From positions 1 through 46,463 of the forward strand of contig JAKZSX010000302.1 in the NCBI GenBank assembly GCA_047517405.1: a stretch of DNA of 46,463 nucleotides, given 5' to 3'. This stretch comes from Candidatus Poribacteria bacterium. GTDB taxonomy: Bacteria > Poribacteria > WGA-4E > PCPOR2b. The notes under the pieces are model-generated. The model searched no databases, was not told the origin of the DNA, and saw nothing but the letters and a program-made list of their open reading frames with translations. Within the stretch, counting starts at the first letter, position 1, and each line of letters begins with the position of its first letter. The translations under genes and the position numbers were made by a program. Below, piece by piece: positions 38,036 to 46,463 of the stretch.

Positions 38036-38641
38036 ATGCCAGATCTGGACCATGAATTGATGAAACAATGTCAACAAGGGAATATAGAGGCGTTTGATCT
38101 GATCGTGCGCCGAAATCAAGTGCCTCTAGTCAATTTTATCGCCCGGTTCTTAGGCGATCCGGACGCCGCTGAGGACTTGGCACAGGAGACATTTGTTCGT
38201 ATGTTCAAAGCAATCAAACGATACAAATCCGGAGTGGCAAAGTTCAGCACCTGGATGTATCATATTGCTTCCAATCTGTGCAAAAATGAACTGCGAAATC
38301 GGGGACGGCGGGGTCGGTTCTTCGTTGATAGTGTGGCCACCGAACCCTCCTCCGGTTCCGAATCAACTGAAGAGGATCTGATCGCGACCGCTCCCGCGCA
38401 TGTCTCCCTCCAACCCGGGAACCAACTTGAACGGAAAGAACGTGAACATGCTGTGCAAAGTGCGATTTCGGAACTCCCCGAGCGATATCGATTGCCGCTG
38501 ATTCTCCGGGACCTGCGAGAGCTGAGCTATGAGGAAATCAGTAACACCTTAGCTCTACCGCTCGGAACGACGAAATCGCGCATCAACCGCGCACGGCTCA
38601 TGTTAAAAGATAAATTGAGAAGTTTTGTGGAGTCATCATGA
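38036..38641 (+). CDS. ECF-type RNA polymerase sigma factor (RpoE-like)
   Basis: Region 2 ('AEDLAQETFVRMF', 'FSTWMYHIASNLCKNE') and region 4 ('LPERYRLPLILRDLRELSYEEISNTLALPLGTTKSRINRARLMLK'). GGAGG RBS. Confidence 0.92.
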   Translation: MPDLDHELMKQCQQGNIEAFDLIVRRNQVPLVNFIARFLGDPDAAEDLAQETFVRMFKAIKRYKSGVAKFSTWMYHIASNLCKNELRNRGRRGRFFVDSVATEPSSGSESTEEDLIATAPAHVSLQPGNQLERKEREHAVQSAISELPERYRLPLILRDLRELSYEEISNTLALPLGTTKSRINRARLMLKDKLRSFVESS

Positions 38642-39252
38642 ACTGCTTAAAAGCTGAAGAACAGTTTTCCGCGTATATAGAAGATGAATTAGATTATCAG
38701 GCGGTTAGGGCATTTGAAGACCATTTGAGTACCTGTCATGCGTGTCGTCGAGAGTTTACCCTATTCCGTGAATCACTCAATTTGCTGCATCAGTTGCCAC
38801 AGATTGAACCATCGAGGGAATTCGATATCGCCTTACAAGTCCGCCTTGCGGATACCCCGATCGAATCAATCCCGTTTTGGCAACGTGTGTTGCGTCCCTT
38901 ATACGGTCAAACCGGTTTGGCATTGAGTGGGATCACAGTGCTGCTTGTCATGATCGCAGGTGTTTATTTTTATCAAAAAACGCTGATCAAACCGCCGTCG
39001 GTTGAAATCGTTGCAGCACCAGAGCCGTCAAGGCGTGTACCGCTTGCTGAGGAGCGTAGGGTCGAATGGCAGGGGCAGCAACTTCCTTTAGCTATACCCA
39101 GCCGAGAGCTGCAGTCCCTAGTTAATTTCCCAGAATCGCCGACATTTAATCTGCAACCGCGGCGTAGAAGTCAACAACCACAACGGCTAGAACAGAACTA
39201 TATTTTGCAGACGGTTAACTACACAGAAGCCCCTACAGGTGGAGGCTTGTAA
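38638..39252 (+). CDS. Anti-sigma factor, zf-HC2 type, single-pass membrane protein
   Basis: 'HLSTCHACRREF' zinc-finger motif and a central TM helix (LALSGITVLLVMIAGVYFY). The start overlaps the sigma stop (ATGA). Confidence 0.8.
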   Translation: MNCLKAEEQFSAYIEDELDYQAVRAFEDHLSTCHACRREFTLFRESLNLLHQLPQIEPSREFDIALQVRLADTPIESIPFWQRVLRPLYGQTGLALSGITVLLVMIAGVYFYQKTLIKPPSVEIVAAPEPSRRVPLAEERRVEWQGQQLPLAIPSRELQSLVNFPESPTFNLQPRRRSQQPQRLEQNYILQTVNYTEAPTGGGL

Positions 39253-39253
39253 A

Positions 39254-40441
39254 ATGTCCAAAACAATTCAGATACAAAATAAGAGATGCAACGCGCCTGT
39301 CAACGGCTACTCAATTCACCTCTATCATAAGTCACTCGTCCTCGCTATCGCGTTGTTTTTAACTTGTCTCCGCTCTACGATTGCCGAAGAAAGTGTGCTA
39401 CAATCCATGGAGCGTGAGTTTCAGGCCATAGTAAAATCTGTGCAACCATCTGTCGTTGAGGTTGTAGCAACGTGCACAGTTACCGCCCAAAAAATTTCAG
39501 GGAGACAGGGAGCATCGCTAGCTGACGATTCAGAGACAGTCTTCTGCTACCAGAACATCGGATCCGGCATTATCATTGATTCCGCCGGACACATTGTAAC
39601 TACCGCAGGGGTCGTTGAAAATGCAGATGGAATTGAAGTCGTATTTGCAAATGGGGACCGCACACCGGGAACACTCCTCGGCGTTGATGCCCTAACGGAT
39701 ATCGCTGTCCTCTCTGTTGAGAGCGATAATCTGCCCCAGACGAGAATTGGCGACTCTAATCAGATCGATACGGGAGCGTGGGTCATCACCGTCGCTAGCT
39801 CTTATGGACATTCTCCAACGATCTCCTTTGGGACGGTCAGCGGCTTAGAGATTTTACCCACACGACCATTTTACGATGCAATCCGAATCAATGCCTCTGT
39901 CAATCCGGGCAATAGTGGAGGTGCTGTTGTCAATACGTCAGGGGAGATCGTTGGTGTCATCGCAGCGAAGCTGGAAGATCCGTATCTCAAACAGATATCG
40001 CATCTGCTCGATTTAACGTTTCCAGAATTGTCCCAAGGACAAGCCGCGGTGTTAAGAGCCGGAATCCCTCTCGGACCGGCCTGGACCAGAAGCGAAATAG
40101 GCTTTGCCATTCCAATTAACACAGTCAAACATATCGCCGAACAACTGACTCAATACGGTAAAGTCCCTCGCGGTTGGCTTGGAGTTCGGCTTGAACAGGA
40201 ACGTGAACGAACCACTGCTGTTGGGGTCCGTGTTACAGAAGTTTCACAAGGTAGCCCTGCTCATAAGTCCGGCATCAAACACCAAGACGTTATCGTTGAA
40301 TTTAAAGGGAAACCTGTTCGTACATTCCTTGAACTCAAAAAACGGGTTGCAAGTTCCCCACCCAATACTCGTGCTGCCATTAAAATTTACCGAGATGGAC
40401 AATTCCTTCTGCGCGAAGTCGTGCTTGGAAACAGAGAGTAG
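39254..40441 (+). CDS. HtrA/DegP/DegS-like trypsin-fold serine protease with one PDZ domain
   Basis: Catalytic 'NPGNSGGAVVN', His/Asp regions ('GSGIIIDSAGHIVTTAGV', 'DALTDIAVL'), and PDZ 'GVRVTEVSQGSPAHKSGIKHQDVIVEFKGKPV'. ATG 39254 (GGAGG 8 nt upstream) is preferred over 39239. Confidence 0.9.
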   Translation: MSKTIQIQNKRCNAPVNGYSIHLYHKSLVLAIALFLTCLRSTIAEESVLQSMEREFQAIVKSVQPSVVEVVATCTVTAQKISGRQGASLADDSETVFCYQNIGSGIIIDSAGHIVTTAGVVENADGIEVVFANGDRTPGTLLGVDALTDIAVLSVESDNLPQTRIGDSNQIDTGAWVITVASSYGHSPTISFGTVSGLEILPTRPFYDAIRINASVNPGNSGGAVVNTSGEIVGVIAAKLEDPYLKQISHLLDLTFPELSQGQAAVLRAGIPLGPAWTRSEIGFAIPINTVKHIAEQLTQYGKVPRGWLGVRLEQERERTTAVGVRVTEVSQGSPAHKSGIKHQDVIVEFKGKPVRTFLELKKRVASSPPNTRAAIKIYRDGQFLLREVVLGNRE

Positions 40442-40549: not shown

Positions 40550-40578
40550 TTGACAATTTTTCAATAATCTGTTATAAT
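40550..40578 (+). promoter_or_regulatory. Consensus sigma70 promoter driving the cobalamin riboswitch leader
   Basis: TTGACA (40550-40555), exactly 17 nt, TATAAT (40573-40578). Both hexamers are perfect. Confidence 0.7.
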
Positions 40579-40630
40579 CAGTAACGCTTCAAACAGAATC
40601 AAAGAAACATTTTAAAACTGCATATTTGTT

Positions 40631-40805
40631 GATTCAGGTGCCGGCAATCAATGAAAATTGCCGGAGAATAGGGAAGCGCGGTGAAAATCCGCCACGGCCC
40701 CGCCACTGTAAAACGACGCAAAACCGTGTCCAAAAAGCCACTATCCCAAATCAGGATGGGAAGGCGGACAATGTGTTGTCGTAAGCCAGGAGACCTACCT
40801 GAATC
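40631..40805 (+). promoter_or_regulatory. Cobalamin (AdoCbl/B12) riboswitch aptamer
   Basis: P1 is GATTCAGGT (40631-40639) / ACCTGAATC (40797-40805). Conserved core elements are 'GGTGCC', 'AATAGGGAAGCGCGGTGAAAATCCGCCACGGCCCCGCCACTGTAA', 'GCCACT...GGGAAGGCG', and the B12 box 'AAGCCAGGAGACCTACC'. Confidence 0.93.
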
Positions 40806-40904
40806 TGATTTCACAGGGTAGCTTTCGCGGGAAGGCTGTGAAACGGGGTTCTTTGCCGATTCATCGTGCTTGAGGATATTATTAGGTGTGAATGGCCAAC
40901 CATA

Positions 40905-40938
40905 CCCCAGCTTTCAGCGTGAAAGCTGGGGTTTTTTT
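40905..40938 (+). terminator. Intrinsic terminator, the likely expression platform of the cobalamin riboswitch
   Basis: An 11-bp perfect stem CCCCAGCTTTC (40905-40915) / GAAAGCTGGGG (40921-40931), a 5-nt loop, then T7 (40932-40938). It lies between the aptamer and the first gene's RBS. Confidence 0.85.
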
Positions 40939-41001
40939 ATTTTTAGGTTGTAAAACCTACAGCTGACACCACTATATCATTGATGAAAGGAAGGTTCAGT
41001 T

Positions 41002-42279
41002 ATGATACGCAGGTTCACATTCACATCTGTACTCACAATTTTAATTTTTGCCGTCCTGAGTGTTTACGCCCAAGAAGACGTGCAAAATCTAGCAATCGTC
41101 GCCAACACTTTGCGGAAACCAGAAGCCGGTATTTCCCCGTCGCTCTCAATTGTCAATCTTGATGAGCCTAATCTCAGAAAGGCGGTCGAGAATGAGATTA
41201 TTCCACTTGGGTTGGTCATACCAAGCGATTTGGAGGTTCAAGGGAATCTCCTCTACGCTCTCAACCAAGAACCAGACCCATTTTTTGATCCGCGCGGTGG
41301 GTCTATCGAAATTATCAATCTGTTGACCCGCTCAAATGTCGGAAGTATCCCAATTGATGCCGATACCACGCCAAAGCAGATTGCCCTTATCCCTCCCTCC
41401 AAAGCATATGTTACCGGCCTATACGGCAATGCAATCCATGTGGTAGATCTGAACCAGAAAAGCGTTGTTAAGCGCATCCCTTGCGGTCCAATGCCCGATG
41501 GAATAACTATTCTTAACGGAAAGGCTTATGTCGCCAATTCGGCGTATGTTAAGGAGCCTGGCACCTGGAACGTCAGCTATGATGATAAGAGCAACGTCAC
41601 AATCATTGATATAGAGACCGACACAGTCTTAAAAACCATACCGATGCCAATAAACACAAACGGTATTGTAAGCGATGGTGAATCTAGGGTGATCGCGGTG
41701 TCAGCCGGTGTTGGCGAGTGGATCGTCCCCGGCGGCATCCCAGGAACCGTTGTGTTTATCGACGCAGTTACCGACGAAATCGAAAAAACAATCGAACTCG
41801 AAGGTAGAGCGGGGGGACCTGATATTGACAGCATGAAGCGCGTCTTTGTCAGTTCAGGTGGATTGCTCGTATACGATCTGTTCAGCGAACAATGGACACA
41901 CGATGCTGACAATCCATTCACAGATTTGGGCGGCGTGGGGGCAATCGATCAGAATGATAACCTCTATATCACAAGGGCGGATTGGACAGGTGGCAGAATG
42001 GACGAGCTATATGTAGTTGCCTCCGATGGGACGCTGCTTAATACCTACGGCATTGGTCCGGGAGGCTCTCTTGTTACTGTTGCACAGGTCCAATCGATAG
42101 GAGTTGTGGCTGCCAATGTGAACCACGATGGGGTGGTCAATATCCTCGATCTGGTTATCGTTGCGAGCAACTTTGGACAAACAGGTGCAAATCTCCAGGG
42201 CGATGTCAATCGGGATGGAATTATTGACGTCTTCGATCTTGTTCGCATTGCGAAGTATTTCGGACAAAATGTCAACTGA
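41002..42279 (+). CDS. Secreted YVTN-type beta-propeller repeat protein with C-terminal dockerin-like domain
   Basis: Signal peptide (FTSVLTILIFAVLSVYAQ). Repeats such as 'AYVTGLYGNAIHVVDLNQKSVVKRIPCGPMPDGI' and 'NVTIIDIETDTVLKTIPMP'. The C-terminus has a duplicated Ca-binding dockerin motif 'NVNHDGVVNILDLVIVASNFGQ' / 'DVNRDGIIDVFDLVRIAKYFGQ'. AAGGAAGG RBS. Confidence 0.85.
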   Translation: MIRRFTFTSVLTILIFAVLSVYAQEDVQNLAIVANTLRKPEAGISPSLSIVNLDEPNLRKAVENEIIPLGLVIPSDLEVQGNLLYALNQEPDPFFDPRGGSIEIINLLTRSNVGSIPIDADTTPKQIALIPPSKAYVTGLYGNAIHVVDLNQKSVVKRIPCGPMPDGITILNGKAYVANSAYVKEPGTWNVSYDDKSNVTIIDIETDTVLKTIPMPINTNGIVSDGESRVIAVSAGVGEWIVPGGIPGTVVFIDAVTDEIEKTIELEGRAGGPDIDSMKRVFVSSGGLLVYDLFSEQWTHDADNPFTDLGGVGAIDQNDNLYITRADWTGGRMDELYVVASDGTLLNTYGIGPGGSLVTVAQVQSIGVVAANVNHDGVVNILDLVIVASNFGQTGANLQGDVNRDGIIDVFDLVRIAKYFGQNVN

Positions 42280-42297
42280 TGGAGATGTACAAAACGT

Positions 42298-42325
42298 GTA
42301 GGGAACGTAGGTCTACGTTCCCTAC
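42298..42325. repeat. Perfect 13-nt-arm palindrome in the intergenic spacer of the riboswitch-controlled operon
   Basis: GTAGGGAACGTAG-gt-CTACGTTCCCTAC. There is no T-run afterwards, so it is not a canonical terminator. Confidence 0.8.
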
Positions 42326-42378
42326 AAAAGTTTACTTCCCGGATCACTTAACCTTTAATCCCTATCCTTCGAGGCACC

Positions 42379-44373
42379 TTGAATCCTCATATCTGTTACG
42401 TCCCACGCCTGCTATTCTTGTCCTGCTGCCTCCTTTATCTCGCTTGTACGCCGAAAACCGGTGAACAATCCCCGATTTCATGGGGAGTCACCTTTTTTCC
42501 GCTCGGTGCAAAAATTGAATTTGACGCTGCGGTTCGGGAGAATGTCCAGAAAGTCACCGCACTTGATTCGGAAGGCAGGTTAGCGGCTCAACTCGATCTC
42601 GGAGGGTATTCGCGCGGTACCGAATCGCTATACTTTCGATGGGAAAAGGGGGATGCTTATCGGTTTGAAGTAATGTTCCAGAACGGTGAATCAGCAGCCC
42701 AAACGGTGCAGGCACCCCAGACCGATCCGCGAGGGACGATTGAGATTGCCATCCCTTACGGCACGATCGAGGTGGAGAAGACCGCTGATGCTAGTGTTGG
42801 TACGCAACCGGCGCCATCTCAGAAGGCATCACTAGTCTTACAAGGTATCGAGATGACCGCAACCGTGCTAATCCGAAATGGTTTGGAGGCACCTGTCAAC
42901 TTTGACGTTGTGCTTCAGGTGCCGGCATCATTTCAGGTGTTGCCGCACCGCCCAGTATGGGATAGTAAGGTGAAGGGAGTTGCTCTGAATCCTGGTGTAA
43001 TCGGAGAAGATATCCTCTCCTACCGCTCATCAGGAAAATTCACAGTCGAATCAGAGGTTTGGTACAGCCAATTGACCTTAAAAATGCCAGATGAACTGCT
43101 CCCCAGTGACACACAGATTCGTGGGCACGTTTTCTTTGAAAATGTGTTGGGAGATCGGTGGGAACGGAGTGTGACCACCCCATTGCGTTCCGCATCTCTC
43201 GATGAGATTGCAGGGCAACTCCGGATTGAGGGCATTACCATGCCGACAGGTCCAAGCGGTGTATCCGATCCGCGCCAACAACCGGACGCGATTTCCTCTC
43301 CGCGTTCCCTCTTGGGAGGATTCGGCAGATGGCTCGGTGCAAAAGCAGCCTCAATGGACCAGTTCGAACCTATCGCATATCAAACAGTGCACATCCACAA
43401 TGGAAGACAGGAGACTATTCACGCGATTGTGGCATCAATGAACCGCGATACAATGGACGGAGAGCCGGTTCCTTTCTTATCTCCCCCGGACGCGGTCAAC
43501 GCCGGCACGAATCGCAGCCTTGCCTTTGTCAGTTTGACGGGAGAAAGCACTACCCCCGTTCCCCTGCCAATCTATTTCAACCCACTGTCCGAATTATATC
43601 GGGATTTCACCGGGGCAGGGCGTTATGAGCGTGCAATCGAAGTGAAAATTTGGGGAAGTGACGCCACGGTTCTACGCGCCACACGACCCCTGCTGATTGT
43701 AACACCTAATTTCCACGCGATGCTTGTTACGGGCATTGTGCTCGTTGTGACAGGACTGGGGATTGCATTGCTACTCTGCTTTCACCAACAACTATTTAGC
43801 TGCTTTTCAACCAAGCAGCTGATCCTTATCTCTCTGTTTGGCACAACGATATTCATTGCCGTCAACGTCCCATCAACCCTGCTGACCAACCTGATCTCTG
43901 CGTTACTCGGTCCCATCTCATCTCTGGTCACCGGCCTCATCAATGAGATGCTATACTACGCCTTGCTGACATCGCTGCTGGTCCTCCTCCCCAAATTCGG
44001 GGTAATCGCCCTAGTTTCCGCGGTCCGGCTCCTGCTGGGAGGCGTCACGCTAGGGTTGCTCACGCCCACTATACTGCTTCACGTTGTAACCGCTGTACTG
44101 CTGCTCGAAGTCGGTTTCCAGATAGCCCGGAAAATTACTTTGGATTCCGGTGCAATTGGAGGCGCGAATCTGCTGATCTTAGCATTCATATTTGGCTTAT
44201 GTGACGCGCTAACTGTCTACGTTGAATTCCAACTGAGCATGACGCTCTACCGTCTGTTCTACGCAGATTGGTATATTCTGACGCGAATCTTAGTCGATGG
44301 TTTTACTTATACATTTATCGGCGTCCTTCTGGGAAAGCGATTAGGTGCGGGGTTGTGGCGGGTTGCAGAATGA
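42379..44373 (+). CDS. Fusion protein of unknown family: lipobox signal, ~430-aa extracytoplasmic domain, and a C-terminal polytopic (~7 TM) membrane domain
   Basis: TTG start with GAGG 4 nt upstream. N-terminal 'LLFLSCCLLYLAC' has a lipobox. A long soluble region follows. From about residue 440 there are consecutive hydrophobic helices ('MLVTGIVLVVTGLGIALLLCF', 'LILISLFGTTIFIAVNV', 'LLTSLLVLLPKFGVIALVSAV', 'ILLHVVTAVLLLEVGF', 'LLILAFIFGLCDALTVYV', 'ILVDGFTYTFIGVLLG'). Confidence 0.8.
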   Translation: MNPHICYVPRLLFLSCCLLYLACTPKTGEQSPISWGVTFFPLGAKIEFDAAVRENVQKVTALDSEGRLAAQLDLGGYSRGTESLYFRWEKGDAYRFEVMFQNGESAAQTVQAPQTDPRGTIEIAIPYGTIEVEKTADASVGTQPAPSQKASLVLQGIEMTATVLIRNGLEAPVNFDVVLQVPASFQVLPHRPVWDSKVKGVALNPGVIGEDILSYRSSGKFTVESEVWYSQLTLKMPDELLPSDTQIRGHVFFENVLGDRWERSVTTPLRSASLDEIAGQLRIEGITMPTGPSGVSDPRQQPDAISSPRSLLGGFGRWLGAKAASMDQFEPIAYQTVHIHNGRQETIHAIVASMNRDTMDGEPVPFLSPPDAVNAGTNRSLAFVSLTGESTTPVPLPIYFNPLSELYRDFTGAGRYERAIEVKIWGSDATVLRATRPLLIVTPNFHAMLVTGIVLVVTGLGIALLLCFHQQLFSCFSTKQLILISLFGTTIFIAVNVPSTLLTNLISALLGPISSLVTGLINEMLYYALLTSLLVLLPKFGVIALVSAVRLLLGGVTLGLLTPTILLHVVTAVLLLEVGFQIARKITLDSGAIGGANLLILAFIFGLCDALTVYVEFQLSMTLYRLFYADWYILTRILVDGFTYTFIGVLLGKRLGAGLWRVAE

Positions 44374-44445: not shown

Positions 44446-44473
44446 TTGACTTACCTAATAGTATGGTTAATAT
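44446..44473 (+). promoter_or_regulatory. Candidate sigma70 promoter ahead of the structured leader of the 44821 gene
   Basis: TTGACT (44446-44451), 16-nt spacer, TAATAT (44468-44473). Confidence 0.3.
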
Positions 44474-44820: not shown

Positions 44821-46463
44821 ATGAAAACACAAAATTTACGATGGAGCATATTTCTTGGTCTACTGATTTACCTTTTCGTTCCAACTCACACAGTAGCGAA
44901 GCCCCTTAAAGGGACTGTTATCTTTACACGGGGTGGTATTGTCATTGAACTGGAAGAACGTCTCAAGAGGACCAATCAACCGGATAGATTACACCCTCTA
45001 CCAAGTTTAGTTATACACGAGGCATCCAAACCTCTGGAGGAAATTTTCCCTGCTTGGATCGATGACCAACGCGCCCTCGCAACGTATGATTGGAAACCTC
45101 AAACGCATTACCACATCGCGTTCCCATGGACTGATGGCAGTCTATTTGAGATAAGCACTACTGCGCCGCTCAAACCCCTCCCTTATCGTATCCGTACCGT
45201 CGAATTAGAATACTCATTGTCGCTGCTGGCGAACCTGCAACGTCCAGCAAAACCGACGACGATTACCTTTTCCCCCGATGGTGAACAACTCGCGATTGGA
45301 ACAAATGCCGGACATCTCGCAATCATCAACCCACTCACGGGGGATCGAATCTGGAAGACACACATCTCCGAAGGTTACGCCAAACACGCAGCCTTCAGTT
45401 CAGATGGAAAGCGTTTCTACATCGGCGAGCAATCCGCTGACGGTTTCATCTATGCCTACGACCTATCAGCCACAAAACCCACACTGTTATGGAGATATCG
45501 CATGGCAGATGACATTGACACCTCAACCTCACAGAATCCGGACGATGTGTACGCATGGGTGCAGTATCCGGGACCCTATCGGATCTCGACAACGGAGGGA
45601 GGAGATCTGCTTGTGGTCGGAAATCACTCGTGGACAAAGGATGGCGTAGGCTTAAAAAAGGCGCAACTCTACCGTTTCGATGGAGAAACAGGAACGCTCA
45701 AATGGAAATGGCCTCCCAATCAGACCCTTCCAATGACCATCAGCTGGTTCGATTATAGCCGTGACGCGAAAACAGTCGCACTGCTCACTTATATAAGGGG
45801 CAGTGGGGAGGCAGGGGGTTTCAAATCCGGCACGTTGTACGTCATCAACGGTGAGACGGGCGAAGCAGCATGGGAATATACCTTCGACCCGCTCAAGCCA
45901 TATTTCGAGGAAGTGACGTTCTGGCGCGGCGTGAGTGCCGCACCCGATGGTGGGTTCATCGATGTCACAACAGATGACGGGCGGGCATTCATTTTCAATA
46001 CGACGCCGGAGCCAGAAGGAATTAAGCCGCTGTGGAATACAAACCTCACAACACCGCTTGAAGTCAGCGGCATCCCAATTATCGCTACCAACGGAACAAT
46101 TGGTGCCACCAACGACTTCGCGCTCTTTGTTACGGGCGACACTTTTATCCCATATCACTTGCAGCAAGGCGCGCAACGGCCACCCTCCGCCCACCCAAAT
46201 GGGATGACCCTCTTTGCTTACGCATGGTCAGGAGAGAAGGTGTGGCAGTGGACGTTGGAAAGTATGCCGCAGGGTTTGCAAGTTGATGGGACCGGACGGT
46301 ATGCCGTTGTCAGCGTGTCCAAGCGCGGAGGAAACGTTGAGGAGCAGTTTCACGGCGTCTCTGTCTTTGATCTCACCGCGAAGGGAGGCGGTCTTTCTAA
46401 GTATCTCTACACTTATCGCACAGAGGGACAGCTCCCCTACGATACCATCAGCATCAGCGCGGA
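44821..46463 (+). CDS. Secreted beta-propeller-like (WD40/PQQ-like repeat) protein, 3'-partial; absent from the supplied ORF track
   Basis: ATG 44821 has GGAGG 6 nt upstream. I translated 547 codons by hand with no stop up to the window end. Signal peptide (WSIFLGLLIYLFVPTHTVA). Repeats such as 'ITFSPDGEQLAIGTNAGHLAIINPLTGDRIWK' and 'AAFSSDGKRFYIGEQSADGFIYAYDL'. Confidence 0.8.
   Translation, partial: MKTQNLRWSIFLGLLIYLFVPTHTVAKPLKGTVIFTRGGIVIELEERLKRTNQPDRLHPLPSLVIHEASKPLEEIFPAWIDDQRALATYDWKPQTHYHIAFPWTDGSLFEISTTAPLKPLPYRIRTVELEYSLSLLANLQRPAKPTTITFSPDGEQLAIGTNAGHLAIINPLTGDRIWKTHISEGYAKHAAFSSDGKRFYIGEQSADGFIYAYDLSATKPTLLWRYRMADDIDTSTSQNPDDVYAWVQYPGPYRISTTEGGDLLVVGNHSWTKDGVGLKKAQLYRFDGETGTLKWKWPPNQTLPMTISWFDYSRDAKTVALLTYIRGSGEAGGFKSGTLYVINGETGEAAWEYTFDPLKPYFEEVTFWRGVSAAPDGGFIDVTTDDGRAFIFNTTPEPEGIKPLWNTNLTTPLEVSGIPIIATNGTIGATNDFALFVTGDTFIPYHLQQGAQRPPSAHPNGMTLFAYAWSGEKVWQWTLESMPQGLQVDGTGRYAVVSVSKRGGNVEEQFHGVSVFDLTAKGGGLSKYLYTYRTEGQLPYDTISISA

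Follow-up and report, generated by a model that had tools for sequence, protein, structure and literature searches.

The first gene of the only B12-regulated operon in a B12-auxotrophic Candidatus Poribacteria sponge symbiont, gene 1, probably encodes the corrinoid-capturing component of that operon, a propeller protein tethered by its dockerin. BtuG of Bacteroides is a surface-exposed beta-propeller that binds B12 extremely tightly and is encoded in riboswitch-controlled loci. The original prediction saw in gene 1 a possible functional analogue of BtuG. As far as sequence analysis reaches, this likeness is borne out and is stronger than proposed, because profile and structure comparisons support homology. 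No paper connecting BtuG with Poribacteria, sponges or dockerins was found in the literature searched. The window is the whole stretch of DNA that was analysed (46,463 nucleotides, contig JAKZSX010000302.1), and the features of the operon are collected in Table 1.

Table 1. Features of the gene 1 operon and its regulatory region, in coordinates of the window.
Feature	Position	Strand	Details and basis
Sigma-70-type promoter, TTGACA-17-TATAAT	40550..40578	+	12/12 consensus matches, TG ahead of the -10 hexamer
Cobalamin riboswitch aptamer, RF00174	40619..40816	+	116.2 bits, E 1.4e-28, full model 1-189
Intrinsic terminator of the expression platform	40904..40942	+	13-bp stem at 40904-40932, 3-nt loop, T-run; sequence and fold
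Gene 1, open reading frame	41002..42279	+	425 aa; start codon preceded by GGAAGG ribosome-binding site
Sec-type signal peptide, aa 1-23, ...SVYA/QE	41002..41070	+	Sequence; Ala23 invariant in alignment A2; modelled helix 3-22
Seven-bladed beta-propeller homologous to BtuG, aa 24-366	41071..42099	+	Profile vs PDB, model, Foldseek
Dockerin module, two calcium-binding repeats, aa 367-425, and stop codon	42100..42279	+	Pfam, phmmer
Perfect 13-bp hairpin in the 99-nt spacer between genes 1 and 2, without T-run on the + strand	42297..42326		Sequence
Gene 2, 664 aa: lipobox Cys23, Ig-like beta-sandwich ectodomain of ~420 aa, 1 + 6 TM helices	42379..44373	+	Model, alignment
Gene 3, secreted PQQ_2/BamB-like propeller, truncated here by the end of the contig (full-length relatives 576 aa)	44821..46461	+	Pfam, synteny

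The B12-sensing locus, its genes and its relatives

The riboswitch that had been predicted close to gene 1 is a cobalamin aptamer of family RF00174 and the sole cobalamin riboswitch found in the genome. Its end lies 186 nt ahead of gene 1, and promoter, aptamer, terminator and gene 1 start codon follow each other in 5' to 3' direction. The terminator region folds with a z of -3.7 and the hairpin is part of the MFE structure. Related loci were collected with alignment A2, a narrow profile whose members are at least 43% identical. A riboswitch lies upstream of the gene 1 orthologue in 32 of the 33 Poribacteria species loci scanned (39-91% identity), hence the juxtaposition of riboswitch and gene 1 is not due to chance. 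Exactly one cobalamin riboswitch is present in each of 21 Poribacteria genomes, and it is the one ahead of the gene 1 orthologue wherever its coordinates were compared with the scanned loci. Thus, gene 1 shares the cobalamin-riboswitch control that is a feature of BtuG. At high intracellular cobalamin the aptamer would let the terminator form and the operon would be silent, while scarce B12 would lead to its transcription.

CobS was found in none of the 21 genomes from the sampled Poribacteria order of sponge symbionts, and the present genome yielded neither CobD/CbiB nor CbiC, yet it keeps B12-dependent enzymes and contains four ORFs with a B12-binding domain. Being the only B12-sensing locus, the operon is the prime candidate for B12 acquisition inside the sponge. 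In earlier work on B12 in sponge Poribacteria a TonB route had only been guessed. A BtuB-like receptor neither adjoins gene 1 nor was detected in the 91%-complete genome; five Plug-domain ORFs located elsewhere resemble the BtuB-like receptors that accompany relatives of gene 1 at plug level only.

Gene 2 follows gene 1 in 61 of the 71 species loci, and the hairpin between them may have a part in mRNA stability or processing. The TM helices of gene 2 are highly conserved and the model places them in a 1 + 6 topology. A profile of the TM domain found nothing in PDB, Pfam and NCBIfam, and Foldseek with the whole model returned only matches to the Ig-like ectodomain (integrin, RbmA), a result dominated by the ectodomain and uninformative on the membrane part. 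One gene 2 orthologue (G017) gave a weak, sub-threshold match to PF09819 (19.4 bits, E 0.004, model positions 3-119 of 121). The genome encodes one EcfT and one fused EcfAA' on contig C242, with no S-component gene beside them. Gene 2 is possibly an inner-membrane corrinoid importer similar to an ECF S-component. Gene 3 is syntenic with genes 1 and 2. It was considered as a BtuK homologue and rejected as such, phmmer against PDB giving generic WD40/PQQ matches only and neither 4R5O nor 9S6C, so that the analogy is unproven. An N-terminal module common to genes 2 and 3 was likewise dismissed, as BLASTP found none.

Outside Poribacteria, lipoprotein-type relatives of gene 1 (about 31-33% identical in our alignment; a lipobox is present, for example, in P0129 and P0131) are encoded directly behind BtuB-like TonB receptors, accompanied by B12 riboswitches and cob genes for salvage. 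The order is riboswitch, BtuB-like receptor and propeller at locus L089, riboswitch, CobA/BtuR, receptor and propeller at L087, and CobU, CobT, CobS, receptor and propeller at L088, while in a member of the Treponemataceae (L090) receptor and propeller adjoin a riboswitch-TonB unit. For all four receptors (L087-L090) the best NCBIfam match is TonB-B12 (TIGR01779). According to earlier descriptions, BtuG is restricted to Bacteroidetes and functions exclusively as a lipid-anchored lid of BtuB. We show here that BtuB-BtuG-like pairs under B12 riboswitches occur in phyla beyond the Bacteroidetes.

The gene neighbourhood also bears on a reading in which gene 1, displayed in the sponge matrix by a cohesin scaffold, binds corrinoids in order to sequester or store them, or to compete for them, with no obligatory uptake step and with gene 2 importing B12 alone. 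Helper proteins are not needed by ECF S-components, which bind their substrates themselves. The clade comprising L036-L039 and L044 keeps riboswitch and propeller, and no gene 2 was found there within the 3 kb of sequence examined. Furthermore, Bacteroides possess several B12 binders on their surface that are not essential, and others borne by vesicles. We nevertheless consider such a role unlikely, because genes 1 and 2 stay adjacent in most species, gene 1 is predicted to be repressed by B12 via riboswitch and terminator like an uptake gene, and the TBDT-linked relatives take the lid position beside a transporter.

Relationship of the propeller to BtuG

Gene 1 begins with the signal peptide that had been predicted for it. 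Read by eye, the N-terminus MIRRFTFTSVLTILIFAVLSVYA, followed by QE, is composed of a basic n-region, a hydrophobic core and a VYA/Q cleavage motif. Inspection of the sequence revealed no lipobox: the signal ends in ...LSVYA/QEDV and the first 60 residues are free of cysteine. The AlphaFold2 model (pLDDT 86, pTM 0.78) has residues 3-22 as a helix at low pLDDT and is all-beta over residues 27-364. The YVTN-style repeats of the original prediction stand for the fold and superfamily, the YVTN propeller 1L0Q being the strongest single-sequence match in PDB (phmmer, E 6.4e-11). The label is not valid for the repeat model itself, as TIGR02276 scores 16.8 bits and remains below its cut-off of 27.85. 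No paralogue of gene 1 was found in its own genome.

When the family profile (A1) was compared with PDB, chains of BtuG1, BtuG2 and BtuG3 were matched over one full-length stretch with E values from 2.8e-28 to 1.1e-23, among them 8BLW_B, 8PTF, 8BMX_D, 8OKV and 3DSM, and the narrow profile A2 still matched BtuG1 at E 2.8e-9. The structural comparison with BtuG that had been suggested gave the same picture, Foldseek ranks 1-16 being occupied by BtuG1/2/3 chains throughout (TM 0.73-0.82, best E 2.7e-17, to ~1e-14), followed by 1L0Q with a TM of 0.63 and YncE with 0.65. Identity between gene 1 and BtuG is only about 17% in the Foldseek alignment. Pfam DUF5074 (PF16819) gave no match on gene 1 at E <= 0.1; close relatives of gene 1 reach 20-28 bits and the lipoprotein relative P0135 reaches 36.8 bits, at a cut-off of 27.2 bits. 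Judged by these scores, gene 1 is a predicted BtuG homologue lying beyond the curated boundary of the DUF5074 family. Thus, the full-length A1 matches, the top 16 Foldseek ranks and the relatives in operons of riboswitch, BtuB-like receptor and propeller support that the gene 1 propeller is a homologue of BtuG and not a mere analogue.

BtuG binds cobalamin or cobinamide with high affinity in its central pocket, by hydrogen bonds to the amides of the corrin. In the alignment with BtuG2, the contact residue Gln219 corresponds to Asn218 of gene 1, and this position is Asn in 70 of the 71 orthologues, in all 14 lipoprotein relatives and in BtuG1. The contact Tyr335 corresponds to Trp328, a Trp in 70 of the 71 orthologues. 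Conservative replacements from BtuG2 to gene 1 are seen at Gln93 (Ser75), Arg133 (Lys125), Trp149 (Tyr141) and Ser131 (Thr123). The contacts Trp272, Tyr316, Glu55 and Phe58 are lost in the alignment, in which the BtuG2 N-terminal loop with Glu55, Gly56 and Phe58 has no confident counterpart in gene 1.

That several BtuG2 contact residues are unconserved, and that neither a BtuB partner nor a lipid anchor is left, would also fit a generic YVTN/YncE-type envelope propeller of structural, adhesive or host-interacting function. Corrinoid binding would then have been lost, and the riboswitch would be inherited from a BtuG-like ancestor or serve gene 2 only. The best single-sequence match to an archaeal S-layer YVTN propeller is in line with such a protein, and at least 19 dockerin matches in the genome would make the dockerin tail a general envelope-display module. 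However, 1L0Q is matched in repeated stretches at the level of the blades, while each BtuG match is a single one over the full length, and every BtuG chain stands above 1L0Q in the Foldseek ranking. Gene 1 is still the first gene behind the only B12 riboswitch of the genome down to 39% identity, and Asn218 and Trp328, both aligned with BtuG2 contacts, are kept in almost every orthologue. We hold a generic propeller to be quite improbable. Import of cobalt or another metal in place of cobalamin, with the propeller as an AztD-type periplasmic metallochaperone and gene 2 as a CbiM/YkoE-like importer of metal or precursor, is very improbable indeed: cobalamin riboswitches often control cobalt transporters, AztD zinc-chaperone propellers are among the Foldseek matches (TM about 0.5) and PF09819, the sole family hint for gene 2, is named 'ABC_cobalt', but the AztD matches are far weaker than those to BtuG, the relatives are coupled to BtuB-like receptors and to genes for the salvage and adenosylation of corrinoids, and cobalt import for B12 synthesis would be purposeless where CobS, CobD/CbiB and CbiC are not found. 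A cobalt-chaperone function was rejected, since no B12-synthesis markers were found.

Dockerin tail, cohesin candidates and a proposed capture route

The duplicated dockerin motif noticed in the original prediction consists of two calcium-loop repeats, NVNHDGVVNILD and DVNRDGIIDVFD. Pfam Dockerin_1 (PF00404) scores 23.3 bits on gene 1, a narrow margin above the cut-off of 22.9, and the cellulosomal dockerin 2Y3N_B matches residues 371-423 including both repeats (phmmer, E 1.9e-7). A dockerin is found in 61 of the 71 Poribacteria orthologues, with both DxNxDG loops in 60 and a single intact loop in one more. The ten orthologues without dockerin end in GKLATSWGKLK instead, a tag that is also C-terminal in the cohesin proteins of C296, L036 and L044.

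That the window contains no cohesin gene was confirmed, and the operon of the present genome has none either. A search of the whole genome, as had been advised, recovered four cohesin ORFs above cut-off (C296, with the cohesin at aa 52-172, C324, C446 and C251), all of them on contigs other than that of gene 1. The same organism therefore encodes cohesins, as is typical of dockerin systems, with the actual dockerin-cohesin pairing being a prediction. In 10 of the 71 sister species the operon has a cohesin gene immediately behind the orthologue, and at L018 this gene, with its cohesin at aa 38-147, is placed between gene 1 and gene 2. The proposed tether to a partner outside the window thus holds on the level of sequence comparison, and a cohesin partner for the gene 1 dockerin is plausible. 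The gene 2 ectodomain is unlikely to be the cohesin, since it has no Pfam cohesin signal and since dockerin and gene 2 do not go together: orthologues without dockerin keep gene 2, and the L036 clade has the dockerin without an adjacent gene 2. The protein of C444, whose middle and C-terminal domains share 87% identity with the operon-embedded cohesin scaffold, was considered as the present genome's copy of that scaffold. It was discarded because it has a different, non-cohesin domain at the N-terminus, where the contig stops.

For gene 1 as the corrinoid-capturing component, we propose the following route. The protein would be exported by Sec, and its propeller, of the same family descent as Bacteroides BtuG, would take up the corrin ring in the funnel at the centre of one face. 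Its dockerin would plug in a calcium-dependent manner into a cohesin on a cell-envelope protein. Candidates are the cohesin-PKD protein of C296 or one of the three other cohesin ORFs in the present genome, and in sister species the operon-encoded cohesin scaffold with a T9SS-like C-terminal domain. The captured corrinoid may be handed towards gene 2, which may act as an ECF-type S-component using the single EcfAA'-EcfT module of the genome, and gene 3, the second propeller, may serve as a relay. A location of the gene 1 protein in the periplasm rather than on the surface is equally possible, since gene 1 is without a secretion domain for crossing the outer membrane.

A more far-reaching proposal, which we put forward tentatively and regard as somewhat doubtful, is a B12 complex held together by cohesin and dockerin. 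In this complex a BtuG-derived trap on a T9SS-displayed scaffold would deliver to an ectodomain-bearing ECF-type importer, bypassing the TonB-dependent BtuB, and the scaffold would be co-regulated by the same riboswitch in some species. If true, this would be the first cohesin-dockerin assembly for vitamin capture and a new B12-uptake architecture in diderm bacteria. Gene 1 itself appears to be a derived form of BtuG with a dockerin as anchor and a changed transporter partner, and cohesin-dockerin modules would gain a role beyond polysaccharide degradation. The orthologues offer three natural anchoring variants of one protein for comparison, namely dockerin, dockerin plus T9SS-like domain, and TSWGxLK tail.

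Comparison with known systems

BtuG of B. thetaiotaomicron (BtuG1/2/3; PF16819; 3DSM, 8BMX, 8OKV, 8PTD) has the seven-bladed fold that is the best structural match of gene 1, and the two have full-length profile homology and cobalamin riboswitch control in common. Both contain blocks such as NGK-YV-NS, then an inserted loop and SV-VID, and the contacts Gln219 and Tyr335 have conserved equivalents in gene 1. Relatives of gene 1 with about 31-33% identity are placed behind BtuB-like receptors exactly as btuG. Obvious differences are that gene 1 belongs to Poribacteria and BtuG to Bacteroidota, and that gene 1 has a Sec signal where BtuG has a lipobox and the Bacteroidota lipoprotein export signal. 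The C-terminal dockerin of gene 1 is reported for no BtuG. Gene 1 is without an adjacent or detectable BtuB and has instead a protein with ectodomain and six TM helices and a second propeller next to it. At ~17% identity the pocket aromatics Trp272, Tyr316 and Phe58 are lost, and binding by gene 1 is only predicted. The Methanosarcina mazei surface-layer protein 1L0Q and E. coli YncE share the propeller superfamily and the repeat signature with gene 1, however their matches are blade-repeat matches that are not collinear over the full length, with TM values of 0.63-0.65, and to our knowledge neither protein is linked to B12. For gene 3, BtuK1 and BtuK2 of B. thetaiotaomicron, B12 relay lipoproteins composed of PKD and propeller domains (9S6C, 4R5O), are the nearest parallel. 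A phmmer search of PDB with gene 3 showed no sequence similarity to the BtuK chains, but in both cases a second propeller is encoded in a riboswitch-controlled B12 locus. The deposited name of BtuK2 is 'quinoprotein alcohol dehydrogenase-like', and gene 3 has a match to PQQ_2.

Compared to the cellulosomal type I dockerin-cohesin system (PF00404/PF00963; 2Y3N), gene 1 stands in a different setting. Its host is a diderm sponge symbiont and its expression is under B12 riboswitch control. The cohesin carriers of Poribacteria end in T9SS-like FlgD_ig C-terminal domains or a TSWGxLK tail, whereas cellulosomes use SLH or sortase anchors, and the cargo is a putative vitamin-binding propeller where cellulosomes carry carbohydrate-active enzymes. 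Despite these differences, the dockerin itself is of the same kind, a C-terminal duplication of the calcium-binding F-hand repeat of ~22 residues, and cohesin proteins are encoded in the same genome, and in sister species by a gene adjoining that of the dockerin protein.

The propeller of gene 1 and its relation to BtuG

The gene 1 product carries a Sec-type signal peptide (…LSVYA/QE) without lipobox cysteine, a propeller at about residues 27-364 (AlphaFold2 model, pLDDT 86, pTM 0.78) and a dockerin with two calcium loops, NVNHDGVVNILD and DVNRDGIIDVFD. The dockerin matches Pfam Dockerin_1 (23.3 bits, cut-off 22.9), and residues 371-423 align with the cellulosomal dockerin 2Y3N_B (E 1.9e-7). 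Signal peptide and duplicated dockerin motif had both been part of the original prediction and are borne out. The YVTN-style propeller, also predicted, holds at the superfamily level, where the archaeal YVTN protein 1L0Q matches in a single-sequence PDB search (E 6.4e-11), but not at the level of the repeat model TIGR02276, which stays below its cut-off. The propeller has no paralogue in its genome.

The same single-sequence PDB search returned a block of Bacteroides entries (E 0.007-0.04) that are identified in the literature as the B12-binding surface propellers BtuG2, BtuG3 and BtuG1. A broad profile, built from gene 1 and 16 relatives reached by phmmer, matches all BtuG chains in one collinear stretch over nearly the whole propeller (E 2.8e-28 to 1.1e-23); in BtuG2, for instance, residues 16-362 pair with positions 6-339 of the profile. 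When the profile was restricted to members sharing 43% identity or more with gene 1, BtuG1 was still recovered (E 2.8e-9), as were BtuG2/3 (E about 1e-5 to 1e-6). In the profile search 1L0Q outscores BtuG, through several overlapping blade-level stretches and hence because of a repeat effect. The structure comparison with BtuG suggested at the outset agrees: Foldseek places BtuG chains at each of the first 16 ranks (TM 0.73-0.82, normalised to target), followed by 1L0Q (TM 0.63) and YncE (TM 0.65). Pfam DUF5074, the BtuG family, scores 20-28 bits on close relatives of gene 1 and 36.8 bits on the lipoprotein relative P0135 (cut-off 27.2), and gives nothing on gene 1 itself at E <= 0.1. Together with the profile and Foldseek matches, these scores indicate a true yet distant BtuG relative outside the curated family boundary. 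Judged by profiles and predicted fold, the propeller is homologous to BtuG. The proposed functional analogue of BtuG thus keeps its relation to BtuG, but is more than a mere analogue, since profile and Foldseek point to a homologue.

Next in closeness come lipoproteins of about 344 aa (approximately 31-33% identical in our own alignment), many labelled Candidatus Poribacteria and one from Treponemataceae. Among five of their loci examined, one lipoprotein gene (P0457) is directly preceded by nrdD-nrdG, genes of the B12-independent anaerobic ribonucleotide reductase, in place of a TonB receptor, and a protein with a faint DUF5074 match plus LVIVD and FlgD_ig domains is encoded further downstream. 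The other four are immediately downstream of a TonB-dependent receptor, in the orders riboswitch, receptor, propeller (L089), riboswitch, CobA/BtuR, receptor, propeller (L087), CobU, CobT, CobS, receptor, propeller (L088), and receptor, propeller, adjoining a riboswitch-controlled TonB gene (L090). The homology among these receptors spans their full length, and the best NCBIfam match of all four is TonB-B12 (TIGR01779), under its equivalog cut-off. Such loci imply that BtuB-BtuG-type pairs, of TonB-dependent B12 receptor and propeller, exist outside Bacteroidota; BtuG was earlier described as exclusive to Bacteroidota, on BlastP criteria. An orthologue of the relatives' BtuB-like receptor was not found in the genome of gene 1.

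B12 linkage of the locus and a candidate importer

The window makes up the entire contig C302 of an incomplete MAG (4.29 Mb, 518 contigs, 91% complete), whose picture agrees with that of closed relatives. Judged by its named homologues, the genome belongs to the sponge-symbiont phylum Candidatus Poribacteria. Promoter, full-length aptamer, stem with T-run and ribosome-binding site precede gene 1 in this order (Table), as in an OFF switch that works by terminating transcription. Upstream, a tight operon of ECF sigma factor, zf-HC2 anti-sigma factor and HtrA-like Trypsin_2-PDZ protease adjoins the riboswitch promoter and is kept in near-identical genomes.

Coordinates of features in the window and in related contigs and loci
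Feature	Position	Strand	Remarks
ECF sigma/anti-sigma/protease operon	window 38036-40441		
Sigma-70-type promoter	40550-40578	+	12/12 consensus
Cobalamin riboswitch aptamer	40619-40816	+	RF00174, 116.2 bits, E 1.4e-28
Stem and T-run (terminator)	40904-40932	+	13-bp stem, between aptamer and gene 1 start
Ribosome-binding site	before gene 1 start 41002	+	GGAAGG, then ATG
Gene 1	41002-42279	+	425 aa
Spacer hairpin	window 42297-42326		13 bp, perfect
Gene 2	42379-44373	+	664 aa
Weak promoter-like site	window 44446-44473		
EcfT/EcfAA' module	C242:4683-9295	-	locus L086
SprA_N match	C366:9570-9881	-	29.6 bits, in 2163-aa frame
Scaffold-like frame	C444:2133-3638	-	contig ends there
Scaffoldin-like cohesin ORF, sister species	L018:4417-5934; L015:4394-5905		
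Cohesin ORF of L036	L036:4817-5866		
Locus of lipoprotein relative P0457	L091:67-5035		behind nrdD-nrdG
DDE transposase	L005:13732-14511; L006:13805-14575		DDE_Tnp_1

Scanning one genome per species, we found 71 Poribacteria loci with a gene 1 orthologue (39-91% identity). Rfam placed a cobalamin riboswitch directly upstream of the orthologue in 19/20 and then 13/13 loci; the sole exception among these 33, L034 (MAG SRP119689_co1_304), has none in the 3 kb preceding the orthologue, even when E <= 1 is admitted. Each of 21 genomes (five genera, mostly 94-99% complete) holds exactly one cobalamin riboswitch, the one before the gene 1 orthologue wherever coordinates were compared with the scanned loci, which makes the gene 1 locus the single B12-sensing locus. 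CobS was found in 0/21 genomes. The genome of gene 1 yielded neither CobD/CbiB nor CbiC; it contains four ORFs with a B12-binding domain and only two weak FecCD matches (about 33 bits). With one riboswitch, B12-binding ORFs and no synthesis markers found, these bacteria use B12 and apparently cannot make it. Earlier Poribacteria literature had suggested TonB-driven B12 import in general terms only.

Gene 2 follows gene 1 in 61/71 loci and gene 3 is present in 46/71, many of the remaining loci being cut by the 3-kb flank. In the gene 2 protein the lipobox cysteine is invariant, Ig-like sandwiches make up an ectodomain of some 420 aa, and the membrane part consists of one linking helix and six highly conserved helices, with motifs including GLINEMLYY, LLLE-GF, FG-CD and FQLSMTLYRLFYA. 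Pfam, NCBIfam and PDB sequence searches returned nothing for gene 2; its orthologue in genome G017 matches PF09819 full-length at a sub-threshold 19.4 bits (E 0.004). On contig C242, a 672-aa B12-binding radical-SAM gene is immediately followed by the genome's only EcfT (284 aa) and its single fused double-ATPase EcfAA' (592 aa), with no S-component gene beside them. Gene 2 may well encode an ECF S-component, and the C242 module is the candidate energiser for it. Gene 3 encodes a secreted PQQ_2-like propeller, for which a role like that of BtuK is conceivable by analogy; phmmer against the PDB gave no sequence support for BtuK.

The 99-nt spacer between genes 1 and 2 contains a perfect hairpin with no T-run on the coding strand, through which the two genes may come to differ in stability or expression; the same spacer is the site of a cohesin gene in sister species. 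In some strains (L005 and L006, near-identical genomes) a transposase occupies the 447-nt spacer between genes 2 and 3, so expression of gene 3 need not depend on read-through from gene 2, or else gene 3 is dispensable. The Table also lists a weak promoter-like site.

Dockerin, cohesins and putative anchoring tails

The genome contains at least 19 dockerin matches, and the search for cohesin-like partners that the original prediction had proposed retrieved four cohesin-domain ORFs. Their architectures are signal or anchor, cohesin and PKD domain with the end …TSWGQLKITR (C296), LamG, cohesin, dockerin and FlgD_ig C-terminal domain (C324), LamG, cohesin and CarboxypepD_reg domain (C446), and cytochrome c, cohesin and dockerin (C251). 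In 10/71 species a cohesin gene stands directly behind a dockerin-bearing gene 1 orthologue on the same strand. At L011, L015-L019 and L021 gene 1 is 84-86% identical; the full reading of two of these loci, L015 and L018, shows a cohesin protein of about 505 aa, with signal peptide, cohesin, Pro/Glu-rich linker, middle domain and FlgD_ig/Por_Secre_tail-like C-terminal domain. The L018 gene lies between genes 1 and 2, separated from them by 124 and 69 nt. At L036, L037 and L044 (gene 1 45-49% identical) the cohesin protein has 349 aa and ends …TSWGHLKATR. A frame on C444 has middle and C-terminal domains 87% identical to the sister-species scaffold; its N-terminal domain is different and not a cohesin, and it was rejected as a scaffold copy.

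Dockerin alone ends 54/71 gene 1 orthologues, among them L049, where just one calcium loop is intact; in 7/71 the dockerin is accompanied by a FlgD_ig-type C-terminal domain, and 10/71 lack the dockerin and end …GKLATSWGKLK; by sequence, the C-terminal module is interchangeable. The consensus of this tag is ...G(K/R)L(A/T)T(T/S)WGx(I/L)K, with 2-4 residues to the protein end. It ends 6/3966 long frames in the genome of gene 1 (C49, C120, C230, C296, C314, C343), and is found on the gene 1 orthologues of L023-L032 and L040 and the cohesin ORFs of L036 and L044. Because the dockerin-less tail is also the tail of cohesin proteins and of the six ORFs, it would be an anchoring device, and it resembles an undescribed sorting or anchoring signal able to replace the dockerin. 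In one clade, the propeller itself would bear the tag that other clades would reach via cohesin.

FlgD_ig-type C-terminal domains occur on >30 contigs (ends of the NPFNPETWIPY...VYFY...K type, many with dockerin also). Together with the SprA_N frame they point to export of the scaffolds by a T9SS-like route, which argues for surface display; the gene 1 propeller itself lacks such an export domain. This suggests that Poribacteria combine a T9SS-like display system with a cohesin-dockerin network (e.g. C324, C251).

Predicted corrinoid pocket, proposed route and comparison with BtuG

Published BtuG2 contacts were mapped onto the gene 1 family via a HMMER alignment of low identity, whose BtuG2 numbering is that of the papers at Cys32, Glu55, Gln93, Trp149, Gln219, Trp272, Tyr316 and Tyr335. 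Gln219 corresponds to Asn218 (Asn in 70/71 orthologues, 14/14 lipoprotein relatives and BtuG1), Tyr335 to Trp328 (Trp in 70/71 orthologues), Gln93 to Ser75 (Ser, Thr or Asn across the family) and Arg133 to Lys125 (Arg in BtuG1), while Trp149 to Tyr141 and Ser131 to Thr123 are conservative replacements. Trp272 and Tyr316 are not kept and have no counterpart, and Glu55, Gly56 and Phe58 find no placement because loop length differs. BtuG1 and BtuG2 themselves are 24% identical and have only about 60% of contacts in common. The predicted pocket is compatible with corrinoid binding, short of proof.

We consider gene 1 to be probably a BtuG-derived corrinoid binder acting in B12 acquisition. At low B12, the terminator would be read through and the propeller secreted, to be held via its dockerin on a cohesin-bearing envelope protein, where it would trap corrinoids in the manner of BtuG. 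The importer with its ectodomain, encoded by gene 2 and energised by the ECF module, would then receive the corrinoid, either straight from the propeller or by way of gene 3; the detailed route of this hand-off is less certain. A sequestration or depot role, in which the propeller would bind corrinoid and take no part in uptake, seems improbable beside the conserved gene 2. Marginally less probable is a propeller that has lost corrinoid binding, to be read beside the two missing aromatic contacts and the nearly invariant Asn218 and Trp328. A metal chaperone is very improbable.

As a putative corrinoid binder, the gene 1 protein invites comparison with BtuG; our literature search found no paper connecting BtuG with Poribacteria, sponges or dockerins. 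Canonical BtuG is defined by a lipoprotein anchor and by partnership with BtuB, whereas the gene 1 protein is without both and has the dockerin as an addition, and therefore we do not class it as BtuG. The likeness reflects common family descent, and the gene 1 protein putatively works alike.
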